Shown: piece after piece, positions 966 through 9,257 of the stretch | Layout: each line of letters starts with the position of its first letter | Numbering within the stretch: position 1 is the first letter of the stretch | NCBI GenBank assembly: GCA_963662465.1 | Contig: OY759599.1 | Coordinates: 288,001 to 352,000 of the forward strand | DNA: 64,000 bases | Direction of reading: 5' to 3' | DNA from: Desulfatiglandales bacterium | GTDB lineage: Bacteria > Desulfobacterota > DSM-4660 > Desulfatiglandales > Desulfatiglandaceae | Made by a program: the position numbers and the translations under genes | The notes under the pieces: generated by a model | Database searches by the model: none | Seen by the model: only the letters and a program-made list of their open reading frames with translations | What the model was told of the DNA's origin: nothing

Positions 966-1760
966 ACCGGATAGGTCGGAGGCCTTACGGCCTCCTTCCC
1001 TACACGGCTCAAGCCTCCGGTAAGGTTTCCCTGGTGGGGATTCCCGCAGATTTGCATCTGCTTCACGTTACAAGCCGGCTGTCAGAATAGCCAAAGGCAC
1101 ACGGGGCGCACCAGCCTCAAGGGCCGTCATTCGCCCGTTTCACTGGCTGCTTTCCCCGCTTTCATCTGATTCCTCCGGTGTTCACGTGATCGGACACCGC
1201 GATGAACGTCTGCCTCCTTACGGAGCCGGGAATGTTTCACCCGGTATCCGAACCATTACAGCCCGGCATTCGCTTTTTTCAGTCTCCTACTCCGGCCCGC
1301 CAACAGCATGCCTTACGGTTAGCCTGCCCCCAAAAGGGGCGACGGGACCGGGTTTCCATGTTCCACATAGTTGATCCAATGGATGACTTAGGTGCGCCCT
1401 CTACGCCGGTGGTACAACAGTTCCGTGCAGGCAGTTGACAGACCTGCAACCTGACCACATCCGCTGACACTGGGCAGCGGCATAAGACCTGTTAATCCTC
1501 GTAGGCCCTTCGCTTGTGATCGACGCTTAAAGACATTCAGATACCTTCACCATATCATCCGACCCTGGCCCTTAACCGGGGAGGATTCCCGGAGGGGTTC
1601 TCCTGTCGCCATTCAAACCCAATTCGGTACGTTGTCCGCAGGGCTTCACACCCCGTCATCAGCGCAACGGCAGCATGCCTGCGTAGGGTCCGGTAGGAAC
1701 ATACCGGGTACTACATGTAACTACATGAATACACTCAAACTATGCGACTTCGTGTCGCAA
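966..1760 (-). mobile_element. ORF-less, degenerate group IIB-type intron inserted after the attC R' core
   Basis: Minus strand starts TTGCGACACGAAGTCGCA and ends ...GAGGCCGTAAGGCCTCCGACCTATCCGGT (domain VI). Shares the IEP-start block GGGGAAAGCAGCCAGTGAAACGGGCGAATGACGG with the intron at 3583-6147. Domain V is cut after GAGCCGTG. Confidence 0.8.
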
Positions 1761-1845
1761 GCCAACGTTAAGCTCACCAGCGCTTCCTCCGGCCCCCGCT
1801 AGGACCGCAGGACTATCAGGCGTCTGGTGCAGCGCTTGGTTCGCG
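1761..1845 (-). other. Integron attC site (attC1)
   Basis: Minus strand CGCGAAC-CAAGCGCTGCACCAGAC...GCTGGTGAGCTTAAC-GTTGGC: R'', L'', L', R' boxes in an imperfect inverted repeat. Confidence 0.85.
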
Positions 1846-2096
1846 ATTCCAGCGGCTAATTGGAATAACGCAGATTTTGGCCCTAAAAACGGAAATATAG
1901 CCCCAAAAAGGAGCAATATTTAGAAACAAACTCTTATATTTTTAGTCAGTTAGCTTGGCCCGACCCCATTTGCACCCCCAATGCTACGGTTCCTTAAAGG
2001 CATGTTTTTGGGGGCGAAAAAAAGTTTTCAAGGTCCAAAACCACCCTATTCCTATCACTAAAACACTGAATGCATTGTTGTATTCTCGGTCCGACC

Positions 2097-3290
2097 CTAG
2101 CCCGCATTGCCTTTGGACCCGGCAAGAACATCAGTCAGCTTTCCCAACCCCCATTCCAAGCTGTACTTGTTGCCGTGCCGCTCCCAGGCCTTGAGACATA
2201 CCAAAAAGACGGTGACCGCCGCCAACCCCAGGACAAATGAGGGAATGGCGCCCATCAAGTCGAATTCCGGATGCCGCCCAGTAAAGAGATACATGATCCA
2301 TAGCGGCAGGGCGATTAGGGGGTAATGTATAAAATAAACGGTTAATGAATGTCTGCTCATGCGCTTAAACCAGGCAGCAAATACCCCGGTTCCGGGAACA
2401 GGGTCTCTTCCATCGTAGTAATAGTACAACAAGGTAAACACTATCAGGGCTTGCCCCACCTGTAGGTAAACCATGGTGTTGGAATCGGGAAAGAGACTGA
2501 AAGGCGAGATGTAATCTGTTATGTGAGACGATTCGGCCCGCAAAAGGCTGGCATAACCGGCGGCAAACGAAAGAAAGATCAGAACAAACCCGATAACCAA
2601 CAGAAAAGGGAGATCTCGTTTCATCTGATTGGCTACGATACGCCGTCCGATCACTAAACCGAACAGGGGAAAGACAAGCCAGGGAAAAACGGGGAAAAAT
2701 CCCGTTAAAAAAAAGCCCCTTATCATTTTAGAAAACCGCCAACTGGGTTCATATTCGCCTGCAGGCTCCACCAGGATGCCTGGAAGGTATTCGGAAATGA
2801 CGGGTGTTTGAATGAATTGTCCTCCCCAGTCGGTCGCAAAATCCACAAAGCCCCGAAGCCAAGGCGACATGAAGACAATTGCTGCGGCCAGAAGGAGAAG
2901 CAGCCATGAAGGTAAAAACCGGCAGAAGTGAAGGACAATGTAGGCTGAACCGATCAGGGTCAAAACGTCCCAGTTCCACACGTTTTTCGGTCCCCAGGCG
3001 AGAACGTTCATCAGGAGTCCGGCAGTAAACACGTATGCGCCGCGAAGAAAGGCCTTCTTCATCAGGTTGTCTTCACCCATCCCTTTTCTTCGTTCGCTGG
3101 AAACCGCCTGACTCACCCCTACCAGCAATAGAAACCAGACCGCACCGAAATCGCCAAGGGCATGGTCCATAATGAAATAAAGCGGATTTTCCGCAGCCTG
3201 AGCATTTCCGTACTCAAGCATATAGTGGCAGATGACCATTCCCGTTAGGGAAAAACCTCTCAGTACATCAATGGATACAATACGCTGCAT
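2097..3290 (-). CDS. Membrane protein, HGSNAT/DUF1624-like acyltransferase domain (cassette gene)
   Basis: RIVSIDVLRG start, multiple TM helices, FFPVFPW and SLTVYFIH motifs. Confidence 0.75.
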   Translation of the reverse strand: MQRIVSIDVLRGFSLTGMVICHYMLEYGNAQAAENPLYFIMDHALGDFGAVWFLLLVGVSQAVSSERRKGMGEDNLMKKAFLRGAYVFTAGLLMNVLAWGPKNVWNWDVLTLIGSAYIVLHFCRFLPSWLLLLLAAAIVFMSPWLRGFVDFATDWGGQFIQTPVISEYLPGILVEPAGEYEPSWRFSKMIRGFFLTGFFPVFPWLVFPLFGLVIGRRIVANQMKRDLPFLLVIGFVLIFLSFAAGYASLLRAESSHITDYISPFSLFPDSNTMVYLQVGQALIVFTLLYYYYDGRDPVPGTGVFAAWFKRMSRHSLTVYFIHYPLIALPLWIMYLFTGRHPEFDLMGAIPSFVLGLAAVTVFLVCLKAWERHGNKYSLEWGLGKLTDVLAGSKGNAG

Positions 3291-3655
3291 GGCTCCTCAT
3301 TTTCAATACACTGAAATTATTCGAATCATCCTTACAGATATGCGTTTCCGGAAAATATAGAAAAAATCCGATCGGGTCCATAAGCATTTTTGAGCTCTGT
3401 CAACAGATGAAAATCGCACAGAATTTCTTTCAGTCAATCATCGTCAAACGATTGGATCTTTTGCCTCATTGGCAGAAAACGACATTCAGATGTTTTGGGT
3501 TCCGAAAAAACACATTGGCTCCAATGAAAAAAACGCAAGCAATTAGATCCAATCACGACTTGCGCGGCCTTTTCCGTTATGGGTCGAGTAGCCAGGGGAT
3601 GTTGCCATCCCCCAGCCCTCTAAGAACCGTGCGTGCGCCGTTAAACGCACACGGC

Positions 3656-5513
3656 TCAAGCATTCCAAAGGCAAGCCCTTTCGGGGCTACCCGGTTGTGA
3701 CGTTTTATGCTCTTTACGCCTGTCTGCCTTCTGCTGACTGCGTTGGGCATATTGTTTCCTGAAATATTGTTCATATTTCGGATCGAAGGGGTTCGCATCC
3801 CCTCGAATTTTGACATGGCGTTTTATCTTGACGTCGTAAGCCTTCTCAAGTTCAATTCTGGCGGATTTCGCATAGCCGTCCTTGATCACCGCTGAAAAGG
3901 ACCACGGGCGAGATCCTTTTGACCAGTATTTATCCACCAGCCAACTCTTACTCTTGCCCGAATGTTTCCTCCTCATCCATTGCCAAATATAGCTGTAGAT
4001 ACGGTGATCTACAAGCCCGAAAGTTCTACCGGAAACCACATGCCTGTGGTAATTGGCCCACCCCCTGATTTTGGGATTGAGTACTTTAATCAGAATGTCG
4101 GCTCTTGATGCCGCATGCTTTCGGATTGTTTTCCGGATATTGCCTAAAAAGGCTTTCACGTTTTTGCGAGAGGGCTTTATCAAAAGTTTTCCTCCGTATT
4201 TGCGTGAACTTTGTCCGAGAAAATCAAATCCTTCTTCTATCCTTGTGATCAACGTCTTTTCCGCTGAAAGCGAAAGACCTCTTCGCTCCATAAATGCTTC
4301 AATTTCCAGCTTGATCTCATTTAGCATCTCTCTGGAATTCCCGGTGATGATAAAATCATCAGCGTAGCGGATTACGTTTATCTTGGACCGTATATTTCCC
4401 TGAATTCTTATCGGGGCGGTGCTTTTGGCTGCCGCTTCCAGACCATCCAGGACCATATTAGCCAATGTTGGAGAGATAATCCCGCCTTATGCAAAGAAAG
4501 TAATTATGCAAAGTAAACCGTAAAAGCCATAATAATTCAAGAGATTCTTGTTGATTTGCTTAGCATAATCTCCACTTATGGTGAATGAGAAAAAGTTCAA
4601 AAAATCATTAGACAAAACAAAGGAGCTATTTTTATCCAAAACAAACGAAGAATGCTGCATCATTTACTTGGCTTTCAAGTCTGAAGTAGTCGTGATATTA
4701 TGCAAAGTAAATTCAGTGCATATGCTTGAAATATTGCACCTTAACTGATTTACTTTGCATAATCGTTAACTTTGCATAAGGCGGGTTATGCAAAGCTTTG
4801 CATAACCCGCCTTGCGGGGTTCCTCTGTATGTCGGATAGAGCTTGCCTCCTTCTACATACCCGGCTTTCAGGCATTTCTGAAGCGTCCGTTTATCCATCG
4901 GGATATTTTCGAGTATCCATTGATGGCTGATTTCATCAAAACAGGCCTTTATATCTCCCTCCAGAATCCATACGGGTGAGTAGCGCTTGGCCAGAGAAAT
5001 AAAACACTGACCGATGGCATTCGCACATCCCCGATAGGGTCTGAACCCGTAAGAGTTCGGATCGGCGGTGGTTTCCGCCACCGGATCAAGCGCCAATTTG
5101 TACAATGCCTGCATGGCTCTGTCCTTCATTGTGGGAATGCCCAATGGGCGTTTCTTGCCGTTTTTCTTGGGTATGTAAATTCGGCGCAGCGGTTTGGGTC
5201 GGTAGGCTCTTCGGCGCAGGTCGTTTACCGCTTGCATTTTGTCAATGTGGGTGGACCATATGACTTTATCCACTCCCGGTGTGCGTTTACCCCGGTTGGA
5301 AGTAACGCGCTTGATAGCCAACAACTTGGCATAAAACGAATGAGTCAAAAGCCACTGTATCACCTTGACTTTTCCCCATCGCTTTTCCTTCACAGCTTTT
5401 GCGATACGCACCTGCAGTCTTCTAACATGCTCCCCGGCGGTTTTCCAGTTTATGGATTTCCACCAGTTTGTTCCGTCCAAAGGTGCACCAGTCGCCAGAA
5501 CGGCCACCGTCAT
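3656..5513 (-). pseudogene. ltrA: Group II intron reverse transcriptase/maturase split by a 325-bp insertion
   Basis: N half (TPGVD, RPLGIPT..DR, YGFRP, EGDIKACFD, GTPQGG) and C half (IISPTLAN, RYADDF, GFDFLG, IRGWANY) rejoin as PQGGIISP when 4481-4805 is removed. Confidence 0.9.
4481..4805. mobile_element. MITE-like insertion in the RT gene
   Basis: About 37-bp imperfect TIRs CCCGCCTTATGCAAAG..ATTATGCAAAGTAAA (4481 and ending 4785), AT-rich interior, extra 20-bp palindrome at 4786-4805. Confidence 0.8.
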
Positions 5514-6147
5514 TCGCCCGTTTCACTGGCTGCTTTCCCCTGTTTGAAGATTCTACAGATTATCTCGCAATGGAACACCGGTCAGAAGTCTGCTCTCTTT
5601 CGAGCCGGATCATGTCGGTGATTACCATCAATCCGTATCCCCATCATTACAACGAGGCATTCGCTTTTTCTGACATCCTTTACCCGCAACCCCATGGGCT
5701 CACCTTGCGGTTCGCTTTCCCCGTGGGGAGGGTTAACGGGCTTACCATGTTCCGCGTAAGTACCCGAGCAGGTTAGGTTCCGCCCTTACGCCGGTGGCAC
5801 GACATCTGCGACGGAGGAGTTCGCAGCCTCCGTTCCTGGCCACGTACCTTTTGGTCCAAGCCTTTCAGCATCTTAGGCTTGTTCTCGTGACGACGCTGCA
5901 GTGATTCACATGTGTTAACCGTACTGCTCAATTCTAGCTCCCTCACCGCATGATGCTTGCAGAGTTGAGGTCCCCTCGCGGTTCCCTCTCCCGGAAAATT
6001 CCGCGGGCTTCATTGTCCCGAGAGCTTCACATCCCCGGATTACTCCGGACGCATGTCCCGGTAGAATACCTGTTGCAGAAAACAGGGTTTTGTTGTATGG
6101 TTTATATTGATATATAAAACAGATACTTACGCGACATCACGTCGCAC

Positions 6148-6229
6148 GCGAACGATAAGCTCACCAGCGCCTTGCACCGGCCCCCGCAAGGACCGCAGAA
6201 CTTTCAGGCGTCTGGTGCAGCGTTTTGTT
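6148..6229 (-). other. Integron attC site (attC2), with introns at both ends
   Basis: Close copy of attC1. Minus strand AAC-AAAACGCTGCACCAGAC...GCTGGTGAGCTTATC-GTTCGC; R'' is restored as TGCCAAC when 6230-7056 is removed. Confidence 0.85.
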
Positions 6230-7056
6230 GTGTGCCGGGCACGGCACGTGTTCTTAAGGGTGCGCGCAATGTACCATGCTTCCGATATTTTACGCAAGTC
6301 CCAGACCCAGCCAGGTAGTGGCGAAGGGTGTAGCGGTATCACAACCGGGTACCCGGTAACGGGCCTGGAGAGGCAGTGGCCTTGCCGCGGCAGGGCACCG
6401 CAAACGCACGGGGCGACGAACAGAAATCGAGTGAGGCGGGTCTGGTGGGACGAGTTCGCAACACAGAACAAAGTCCTCTAACTACTATAGGCCAGGCACG
6501 TTGTCGGCGCTCGTGTGCGGAAAGACACGTGTTTACCCCGGGAGGCCCGTTGCGTCTCGTAGGGAGCTGCAACTGAAATCTACCGGAATATAAGGGAAAA
6601 CCGGTAAAACAAAACCCTGGCGTCAGGAACATTTCGAGTCAGAGCCCTGACGAGCCCGGCCTATTGGTCGGGAAACACAAACAAATGGACTCGACAGATT
6701 GCGGAAACTACGAGTGAGCGAACCGCAAGGGGAGCCCACCGCGTAACGGGAGTCAGCAGAGGGCATATTAAGCCGGAGAAACGAGCCCTGAATAAAGGGA
6801 GGCCTCACTCCGGTGAAGGCCCGGACTGTGCCACCTGCCGAATGGCAGGGGTAAATGGTTGTGTTTGTCAAAGAACGTGTACTTATTGGTCTAATGCAGC
6901 AGTAGCTGAAAGGTCGATAACGTCGCATTCTGGAAAACCCGGTAGGGCGGAACCTGTTTTATCCGTGCCTGCTCTGACCAGCCGAATCGCCGTATACGGA
7001 CCCGTATGTACGGTGGTGTGGGAGGGGGGAGCTGTGAGGCTCCTCCCTATCCCTAT
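6230..7056 (+). mobile_element. ORF-less group IIC-attC intron
   Basis: Starts GTGTGCCGGGCACGGC after TTGTT; GGAGTCAGCAGAGGGCATA and GAAGGCCCGGAC motifs; IIC-type domain V ATCGCCGTATACGGACCCGTATGTACGGTGGTG; ends CCTATCCCTAT; domain IV only about 150 nt. Confidence 0.88.
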
Positions 7057-7357
7057 GGCAGCCCATAGTTCAGGTAATAGCACGGAATTACGGAGGAAAT
7101 ATCTTGGCACTTTGCCTCATAGATGAAGTCTTATTTCCTCTGCAGATTTCGTCTATGCCTGTCACATTCCGCAAAATGTCATAGGGAAAAACAGCTTTGC
7201 ACAACTCCCCTTTGAAAATAATTTTATTCCCTATTCGTAATTCCCATCACTTTAAATTACCCTTCTGACCTCTTCATTTGCCTTCGGATATACTGCTCCC
7301 GTGCGCCAGTCAACAAGAAGCTCAACAGTTCGGTTCTGCAGTCAGAGGAACGTATGG

Positions 7358-7792
7358 TTAGGTGATTTGATTTACACATTTTTCTGCATTCTCAATAAGT
7401 GTAGGAATATTCGGTTTATTGAAACCCATTTCTGGTGCAGGAATTCGGTTATGTTTAATATCGGGTGGAATATGTTTATGATGGGGGTATGAACTTTTCA
7501 GAACAGGATCATTCGGATGAGGCTGAGAATCATACCAGTATAGCTTTTCTTCATCTTTCCATACCTCATAGCCGTACCATTCTATAGTAAGCGGTAAACG
7601 ATCATACAAGAGTCGTTCCCTCACGATAATTCGGACGGAACCGTCAAAATACAATTCACCTGCTACTCTCGCGAGTGTTGCCCCCACCCGGACGAAAGTT
7701 ACGGTCGAATGGCGTACAACGGGGAACTGTTCAGTAATCGTGTACAAAAACAGTTCATAATCTTCCGGTGAGCGAAGCGGATTTTCCTGCAT
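7358..7792 (-). CDS. DUF6516/TumE-like putative toxin (cassette gene)
   Basis: Y.Y....WYDSQPHP...SYPHHKH motif. Confidence 0.65.
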   Translation of the reverse strand: MQENPLRSPEDYELFLYTITEQFPVVRHSTVTFVRVGATLARVAGELYFDGSVRIIVRERLLYDRLPLTIEWYGYEVWKDEEKLYWYDSQPHPNDPVLKSSYPHHKHIPPDIKHNRIPAPEMGFNKPNIPTLIENAEKCVNQIT

Positions 7793-8057
7793 AGGATACC
7801 TTTATCAGTCCTTTTAGACCCGATGATGATTGGCGGATACGCTGAATCTCATTCCGGTATTCTGCCTGCCGGAAAAGCCATGTCCGGTAGATGCTTGCCC
7901 ATTCACCAAAATCCAGAACCCAATTGTCATCTTCAGGTTCTTCACCCTCAATATATGCAGCATACAGGGTTTCAGAGCGAATACCGTATTTGCGCTCAAA
8001 ATTTAGGAGTTCCGTTTCAAGAGCATGAATATCAGTCAGAGTATCATATAAATTCAT
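7755..8057 (-). CDS. Putative antitoxin (TumA-like) paired with the DUF6516 gene
   Basis: LLNFERKYGIRSE..Y.....G.......DFGEW pattern; overlaps the downstream toxin-like gene. Confidence 0.55.
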   Translation of the reverse strand: MNLYDTLTDIHALETELLNFERKYGIRSETLYAAYIEGEEPEDDNWVLDFGEWASIYRTWLFRQAEYRNEIQRIRQSSSGLKGLIKVSYAGKSASLTGRL

Positions 8058-8435: not shown

Positions 8436-8559
8436 GCCAACATTGAGTTAAGCTGTAATTTTTCGGCCCAAAAATTGCCGCCCTCCCAACGTGAAAAACG
8501 GCGACAAACTCTCAAATGCAATTTTTGGGACGAAAAATATCAGTCTTGAACCATTGGTT
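8436..8559 (-). other. Integron attC site (attC3, different sequence family)
   Basis: Minus strand AAC-CAATGGTTCAAGACTG...CAGCTTAACTCAAT-GTTGGC with long internal inverted repeat (TTTTTCGTCCCAAAAATTGC / GCAATTTTTGGGCCGAAAAA). Confidence 0.8.
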
Positions 8560-8938
8560 GTGTGCCGGGCACGGCACGTGTTCTTAAGGGTGCGCGTAAT
8601 GTATCATGCTTCCGATATGTTACGCAAGTCCCAGACCCAGCCAGGTAGTGGCGAAGGGTGTAGCGGTGTATCACAACCGGGTACCCGGTAACGGGCCTGG
8701 AGAGGCAGTGGCCTTGCTGCGGCAGGGCACCGCAAACGCACGGGGCGACGAACAGAAATCGAGTGAGGCGGGTTTGGTGGGACGAGTTCGCAACACAGAA
8801 CAAAGTCCTCTAACTACTATAGGCCAGGCACGTTGTCGGCGCTCGTGTGCGGAAAGACACGTGTTTACCCCGGGAGGCCCGTTGCGTCTCGTAGGGAACT
8901 GCAACTGAAATCTACCGGAATATAAGGGAAAACCGGTA
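8560..8938 (+). mobile_element. 5' fragment of a second copy of the IIC-attC intron
   Basis: Near-identical to 6230-6606, inserted after TGGTT of attC3; similarity stops at GGAAAACCGGTA. Confidence 0.88.
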
Positions 8939-9003
8939 TCCTTCATTTTCCAGTTTACACTTTTGTCCCCATGCATTTCGTTTCCAAACATGAAACTCCC
9001 CCC

Positions 9004-9029
9004 AGAGACAAGGCATGCCTTGTCTCTAC
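9004..9029 (-). repeat. GTAG-family REP-like palindrome
   Basis: Minus strand GTAGAGACAAGGCATGCCTTGTCTCT, perfect palindrome with GTAG tail. Confidence 0.6.
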
Positions 9030-9172
9030 AGCAGCTGCGTGCGTTTGTACAACCTGCTTTTGTGTTCGATGAGAATGTACCGGCCAAAATCCCCGTACAA
9101 ACACCCCGCCGTCAAGTAAAAACCCCTTTTTCTCTTCGCTGTCGTTTTTTCCTTTTACGACCTCTTTTTATT

Positions 9173-9257
9173 TCTCGCGCCAAGACGCCAAGACGTCAAG
9201 ACGCAAAGTTTTTAAAACATAGTCTTTTTCTTTGCGCCTTTGCGTCTTTGCGCGAGA
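9173..9257. repeat. Palindromic element built of 8-bp units
   Basis: TCTCGCGCCAAGACGCCAAGACGTCAAGACGCAAAG...CTTTGCGCCTTTGCGTCTTTGCGCGAGA. Confidence 0.7.

Follow-up and report, generated by a model that had tools for sequence, protein, structure and literature searches.

The window, by which we mean the whole 64,000-nt stretch of DNA analysed here (Desulfatiglandales bacterium, contig OY759599.1, positions 288,001 to 352,000), carries an attC site at 6148-6229 that is occupied by two group II introns of different classes, lying on opposite strands and pointing apart. The features concerned are these, in window coordinates:

1006-1760, minus strand: short form of a second IIB1-type intron subfamily, starting TTGCGAC directly behind R' (GTTGGC|); RF02012, 78.4 bits at 1568-1708
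1762-1843, minus strand: attC of the acyltransferase cassette, 77.8 bits with the family profile; R'' GCGAAC, set against the cassette start TTCGC at 6152-6148
1844-3582, minus strand: remainder of the cassette headed by the IIB1-type intron, with an acyltransferase gene at 2097-3290 (HGSNAT_cat, Acyl_transf_3)
3583-6147, minus strand: IIB1-type (CL-like) group II intron, 2565 nt, starting GTGCGAC and ending CTCGAC; RF02012, 114.8 bits at 5938-6087; RF00029, 55 bits at 3583-3659
4489-4801, no strand assigned: MITE-like insert of 313 bp that splits the RT gene of this IIB1-type copy and is absent from five sister copies
6148-6229, minus strand: attC body, 82 bp, with R' GTTCGC at 6153-6148 and the AAC of R'' at 6229-6227; 73.2 bits; bulged hairpin; collinear with the attC of a same-genus genome (G005)
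6230-7056, plus strand: class IIC intron without an ORF, 827 nt, starting GTGTGCC and ending CCCTAT; RF02001, 86.1 bits at 6350-6532; RF00029, 45 bits at 6985-7056
7057-7060, minus strand: remainder of R'' (top strand TGCC), the IIC intron lying between TGCC and AAC
7358-8057, minus strand: cassette cargo, a TumE-like toxin (7358-7792) and a TumA-like antitoxin (7755-8057), from Pfam TumE and NCBIfam
8436-8559, minus strand: upstream attC of another sequence type, 124 bp, whose R' GTTGGC (8441-8436) starts the TumE cassette; predicted hairpin of -27.4 kcal/mol
8560-8938, plus strand: 5' fragment of a second IIC copy, 379 nt, abutting a multi-copy repeat

The TumE and TumA genes lie on the minus strand, which is therefore the top strand of the cassettes. 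In the sequence, 82 bp separate GTGCGAC, which runs leftward from 6147, from GTGTGCC, which runs rightward from 6230; the first-pass annotation, which had described an 82-bp attC with outward introns at 6147 and 6230, is thus confirmed to the base by the sequence and by the Rfam matches. The IIC intron occupies the bottom strand of the attC, after the GTT of R'', and the IIB1-type intron its top strand, six bases into R'. The 3' ends were placed by comparison of copies. Among the IIC copies of the genome, CCC(T/C)AT| is the last sequence shared at all 10 3' junctions, the flanks beyond being unrelated, and in the 11 IIB1-type 3' regions that were examined similarity is lost beyond CTCGAC|, which delimits the minus-strand intron as 6147-3583 (2565 nt) and the plus-strand intron as 6230-7056 (827 nt). 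The same-genus genome G005 has a 78% identical cassette end with an attC that is uninterrupted at both ends. As this site is collinear with ...6229+7057..., the IIC boundaries at 6229/6230 and 7056/7057 are exact, and we regard the anatomy of the site and its boundaries as established. The host genome has no second copy of the TumE cassette with its attC end, only internal pieces of the gene at 1.79 Mb.

Removal of the IIC intron restores TGCC+AAC, the complement of GTTGGC (8441-8436) at the start of the same cassette, as had been proposed at the outset; both the sequence and G005 bear this out. The next cassette follows the same rule, its R' GTTCGC (6153-6148) complementing R'' GCGAAC of the attC at 1762-1843. 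Across the genome, all three variable core bases are complementary in at least 13 of 35 neighbouring attC pairs, where chance would give 1/64 per pair; this is a lower bound rather than a rate, because the parser was crude, misread several R' boxes and missed other attC types. The complementarity between R'' and the cassette start at the window site is the signature of integron cassettes. The core boxes, TGCC|AAC (R'') and GTTCGC(G) (R'), have AAC and GTT exactly, while their outer bases fit RYYYAAC/GTTRRRY only loosely. Scored with a sequence profile made from 14 attCs of the same genome, the site reaches 73.2 bits, within the 40-85 bits of near-full-length sites, and a genome search with this profile found 55 members of the attC family, clustered in arrays. 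An Rfam scan of the window reported no attC match. With the IIC intron removed in silico, the bottom strand is predicted to fold into a hairpin of -17.3 kcal/mol with bulged bases present. Five intI matches over the TIGR02249 cut-off were found in the genome, with arrays beside them. None of the five lies inside the window, so the window array is an attC cluster without a neighbouring integrase. The intI match at G000:C1:6845296-6848178 (L011, L012) is split, with residues 2-224 and 221-313 encoded approximately 1.9 kb apart.

The cassette between the two attCs had been called toxin-antitoxin-like. This stands as distant homology for the toxin candidate, which scores 44.8 bits with Pfam TumE (passing the cut-off of 23.4) and 19.2 bits with NCBIfam TumE (under the cut-off of 90), whereas the antitoxin candidate reaches 23.9 bits with NCBIfam TumA, under the cut-off of 100, and has no Pfam match. 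The upstream attC at 8436-8559 has its R'' likewise cut after GTT by an IIC copy. The repeat that abuts this 379-nt IIC fragment (window 8560-9195) is 95% identical at 6068480, 6070296 and 7111696, and probably marks the terminus of an insertion sequence. An approximately 180-nt module (window 7057-7237), with an inverted repeat of the CAGAGGAAATA / TATTTCCTCTG type inside it, separates R'' from the TumE stop codon; it recurs, 77-88% identical, beside the attCs of other cassettes, at genome positions 6382720 and 3348687 and in the congeners G005 and G007.

The assignment of the plus-strand intron to class IIC is supported by its RF02001 match and by the protein of an ORF-bearing sister (genome 443329-445451, L002), which is 98.9% identical to the window copy over nt 1-628 and whose product is closest to the GsI-IIC RT (2.3e-99, versus 9.7e-30 for the IIB intron TeI4h). 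DV of the window copy begins CGC, a start typical of IIC introns. The window copy is antisense to the cassettes and is one of about 10 in the genome, 90-100% identical. All 10 IIC 5' junctions follow an attC-like hairpin ending GTT (TTGTT in four, TGGTT in six) on the strand opposite to the cassettes; at the 10 3' junctions, the 3' exon opens with A in eight cases and with G in two. The MFE fold of the 827-nt RNA was uninformative on EBS1, and AACAA near nt 250 is a candidate partner of TTGTT. A tblastn search of plasmids with the IIC protein gave, as the best among the matches listed, proteins 55-62% identical; these carry generic ltrA annotations, for which reason we rejected them as evidence of membership of the IIC-attC clade. 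In L002, the sole ORF-bearing copy of the lineage, the RT and maturase domains are in different frames. With its maturase domain out of frame, the present-day mobility of the IIC lineage is unproven, and the approximately 10 IIC copies may lack a functional protein of their own if the frameshift is not a sequencing error. The IIC copy at G000:C1:3342346-3345186 (L003), which sits at a double-occupied attC, is itself split by approximately 2 kb at intron nt 441-449.

The minus-strand intron, sense to the cassettes, is present in 12 copies in the genome. The product of an intact sister, 510 aa long, has RVT_N, RVT_1 and GIIM domains but nothing that matches an endonuclease (HNH) domain; among solved proteins, the TeI4h maturase is nearest to it (2.6e-170, 570.7 bits, residues 7-485). 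This relationship, together with the EBS1 and EBS2 candidates described below, upholds the earlier label of IIB-type. The intron has the ends GTGCG...GAC, and GAGCCGTG... was read in DV (AGC triad criterion). The CL1 label is that given to UHB.I2 in PMC7923331, and any place of the protein in the CL lineage is tentative, judged by its closest solved relative, TeI4h. The MITE-like insert at 4489-4801 has inverted ends around TTATGCAAAG and an apparent 8-bp duplication, AAGGCGGG. Seven copies of this element of at least 250 nt occur in the genome, and each lies in the RT gene of a group II intron, always at one P-Q-G-G codon block; either orientation is seen, and the introns hit belong to more than one family. 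Both introns of the window attC are thus non-autonomous, the IIC intron having no ORF and the IIB1-type intron an RT gene split by the MITE-like element, so that splicing or movement of either would need protein from a sister copy.

Scores and 5' sequences divide the 28 RF02012 introns of the genome into at least three subfamilies. Of these, 21 lie behind an attC (18 confirmed by the profile, three behind an attC or half attC recognized by eye), four behind a shared non-attC, attI-like sequence and three behind the 3' end of another intron. Their usual position is on the cassette strand, six bases after the G of R'. The suggested division of the site between the two intron classes, by strand and by box, therefore holds genome-wide, with IIC introns opposite to the cassettes after GTT in 10 of 10 cases and IIB1-type introns on the cassette strand. 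In the IIB1-type intron, EBS1 (GCGAAC), located in the loop of a hairpin at intron nt 326, is the exact complement of GTTCGC (positions -6 to -1) in R', and EBS2 (ACAAGC), at intron nt 266, complements GCTTGT (-13 to -8) in L'; the window copy has GCTTAT as IBS2, with one mismatch to EBS2. Across relatives, the EBS1 loop and the 5' exon broadly covary (GCGAAC/GTTCGC, GTCAAC/GTTGGC, CCTAAC/GTTCGG (5/6) and CTTAAC/GTTAAT (5/6)), and the AAC that would pair with the GTT core is constant among the loop variants. IBS1 is imperfect, at position -3 or elsewhere, in 10 of the 21 attC-sited copies. The target pattern across the genome and the EBS/IBS complementarity are established observations. We infer from them that the IIB1 lineage may find attC by ordinary IIB pairing to the conserved L'-R' arm, which would be an alternative to the hairpin recognition envisaged for UHB.I2.

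One relative whose protein is 85% identical, found in a different Desulfobacterales MAG (L018), also lies behind an attC of the same consensus. For more distant relatives, 50-54% identical, from Trueperaceae and Desulfamplus MAGs (L013, L014, L017, L019), inspection by eye found nothing attC-like in front, so the attC habit is confined to the close relatives among those examined. No intron start was found for two further IIB1 relatives (L015 and L016). The non-attC sequence before four IIB1-type introns is approximately 90 nt long and ends TATAAT(C/A)ACTGGTT plus 2-4 bases (G000:C1, about 6844195-6844290, 4983237-4983326, 5886397-5886486 and 622946-623040). At these four sites IBS1 is kept and IBS2 is absent, and two of them are approximately 1.1 kb from divergent intI genes; judged by their sequence, they would fit intron-headed cassettes integrated at attI by the integrase. 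Head-to-tail intron arrays are seen at G000:C1:3329531-3334771 and about 440569, where two copies, the first of them attC-sited, stand in direct succession ahead of a third that belongs to another subfamily; here the 5' 'exon' is the CTCGAC end of the preceding intron and pairs poorly with EBS1. At the double-occupied attC at G000:C1:2371487, a TTGCGAC-type intron lies directly after GTCG, at the crossover G|TT and not after GTTNNN, with five bases apparently missing.

The genome has four double-occupied attCs, namely the window site and those at 2371411-2371486, 3345187-3345270 and 3353177-3353257. These attCs share only 75.3-83.5% identity with one another and their outer exons differ, so they arose by separate events. 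This bears on the prospect that the double site is an assembly artefact, or that one ancestral double-occupied unit was spread by segmental duplication. Both introns are multi-copy and 93-100% identical, such repeats are the usual cause of mis-joins, and no listed contig spans the whole stretch. Four double sites with attCs 75-84% identical and different flanks are hard to reconcile with either version, however, and the core-complementarity rule of the cassettes holds across both junctions. In addition, a 131-nt short-read unitig from run X17, which may be the source sample, covers 6126-6256 without difference, taking in the whole attC with 22 nt and 27 nt of the introns, and 455-nt unitigs cover 7030-7484 without difference; as the unitigs extend fewer than 31 letters into the repeats, below the bridging criterion, they speak for local adjacency only, with a 1.9-kb stretch unspanned. 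We consider an artefact or a duplicated unit very improbable.

Within the 55-member attC family, the one family to which these counts refer, 35 sites are empty, 14 carry an IIB1-type intron only, two an IIC intron only and four both. Four double sites compare with 1.96 expected (Fisher p=0.082), so independent homing is enough to explain them. A mutual dependence, in which one intron favours the entry of the other (for example through a stabilized hairpin or a single-stranded site), would predict an excess of this kind: an IIB1-type intron is present at four of the six IIC-occupied family sites and at 14 of the 49 without IIC (odds ratio 5, p=0.082), and the inverted intron 5' ends extend the predicted stem. 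Yet the excess is not significant and most copies stand alone (14 IIB1, two IIC), while the preference of both lineages for the same attC sub-type inflates their co-occurrence; we think dependence distinctly unlikely, though less so than an artefact.

It had also been suggested that the IIC insertion breaks R'' and may lock the toxin-antitoxin-like cassette; the attC would then be inactivated and the TumE/TumA genes fixed in place. R'' is indeed physically split, with TGCC 827 nt from AAC, an IIC fragment interrupts R'' of the cassette's upstream attC as well, and the cassette with its attC end exists once in the genome. Against this, the start of the IIC intron turns GTT|GGCA into GTT|GTGT, which recreates a near-consensus core, GTTGTGT, that agrees with GTTRRRY at six of seven positions; GTTGTG/CACAAC also occurs naturally as a core of unoccupied attCs in the genome. 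IntI cleaves attC at the R' side, which is intact here. Folding predictions still give a hairpin for the occupied bottom strand, at -19.6 kcal/mol compared with -17.3 kcal/mol when the IIC intron is removed in silico, because the two inverted GUGYG intron ends are predicted to pair and lengthen the stem. The claim of a broken R'' and a locked cassette is therefore not borne out, and we regard a lock as doubtful.

We conclude that two independent retrohoming events probably hit one attC, each lineage at its own end, and put the probability of this reading at roughly 85%. An attC is an imperfect palindrome and so offers a hairpin and a GTT core on each strand. The IIC lineage would read the bottom strand, recognizing the hairpin and a short 5'-exon pairing that ends GTT, and would insert within R'', antisense to the cassettes. 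The IIB1 lineage would read the top strand, pairing EBS2 ACAAGC with GCTTGT in L' and EBS1 GCGAAC with GTTCGC in R', and would land outside the hairpin, six bases behind the integrase crossover G|TT; the intron would thereby head the next cassette and lie in its sense orientation. The two targets, hairpin plus GTT on the bottom strand for IIC and L'-R' on the top strand for IIB1, would not overlap. As neither insertion removes the target of the other, double occupancy would accrue at roughly the chance rate. How the pairing works in vivo, which insertion came first and whether IntI recombination is affected are matters of inference.

By GC skew, replication starts near 5.74 Mb and ends near 1.78 Mb; a dnaA homologue lies at 5.768 Mb. 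In a hand tally, the lagging-strand template holds 10 of 10 IIC 5' ends and the leading-strand template 26 of 28 IIB1-type introns; the arrays are uniformly oriented, so this replication-strand bias is inseparable from array orientation. The bottom strands of the array attCs would lie on the lagging-strand template.

More tentatively, these elements can be joined into one picture, which we think unlikely to hold in full. The attC would be a two-sided landing pad on which an integron and two retroelements meet. The EBSs of the IIB1 lineage would be tuned to L'-R', so that the intron would always form the head of the next cassette and be moved by IntI; the four copies at attI/Pc-like sites, with IBS1 kept and no IBS2, would then stem from recombination at G|TT and not from retrohoming. 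A doubly occupied site would be recombinogenic, its inverted GUGYG ends rebuilding the outer R box, and the integrase would carry both introns.

Integrons, like group II introns, are a major driver of gene mobility in bacteria, and the known link between the two is essentially one lineage (IIC-attC) on one strand. If our reading is true, a second, unrelated lineage uses the other strand by plain base-pairing, which would make attC sites a general niche for retroelements. It would also provide a natural IIB intron with an integron-core target, of interest for targetron design, and bear on cassette expression through a sense-oriented, spliceable insert. The empty, singly and doubly occupied attCs would form a defined substrate for asking how much of R'' the integrase needs.

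Among the papers on group II introns, attC sites and integrons that full-text searches brought up, we found no description of one attC bearing two introns. What is already known, as far as the accessible parts of PMC3001079 and PMC7923331 go, comprises the IIC-attC introns and one IIB1 intron behind an attC, UHB.I2. The IIC-attC introns, such as S.ma.I2 of Serratia marcescens and its relatives, are placed by the available text of PMC3001079 on the attC bottom strand after the hairpin, opposite to cassette transcription; the group is also covered in a review (PMC4424553, available in part). The window IIC intron shares with the S.ma.I2 type, as portrayed in those parts of PMC3001079, the bottom-strand site after the hairpin, the antisense orientation and, in its sister, a protein of class C type. 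It differs in having no ORF (827 nt), in its approximately 10 near-identical copies, of which the only ORF-bearing one is frameshifted, and in sharing its attC with a second intron.

For the IIB1-type intron, the closest solved protein relative is that of TeI4h of Thermosynechococcus (PDB 6ME0), which the available portion of PMC2882425 describes as an IIB1 intron whose ORF-less derivatives were served in trans, some members having an unusual 5' U. The likeness covers the protein, the IIB1 RNA, a family with ORF-less members and, in some, the 5' U. In the same portion of PMC2882425, however, the TeI4h protein has an En domain, whereas the protein here ends at 510 aa without an HNH match, and the TeI4h targets are genes and other introns, not attC. 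UHB.I2 is nearer in its habit: according to the accessible text of Sonbol and Siam (2021, PMC7923331), it is an IIB1/CL1 intron directly behind an attC on a soda-lake metagenome contig. By that partial description, UHB.I2 resembles our introns in being IIB1-type, in its protein without an En domain, in its cassette orientation, in its place immediately behind attC and in a 5' end, UUGCG, that is also that of the second IIB1-type subfamily here. The same text reports one full copy with no conserved exons found, and speculates on hairpin recognition. In contrast, the lineage analysed here has 28 copies in one genome, at a consistent position, with EBS1 and EBS2 complementary to L'-R'.
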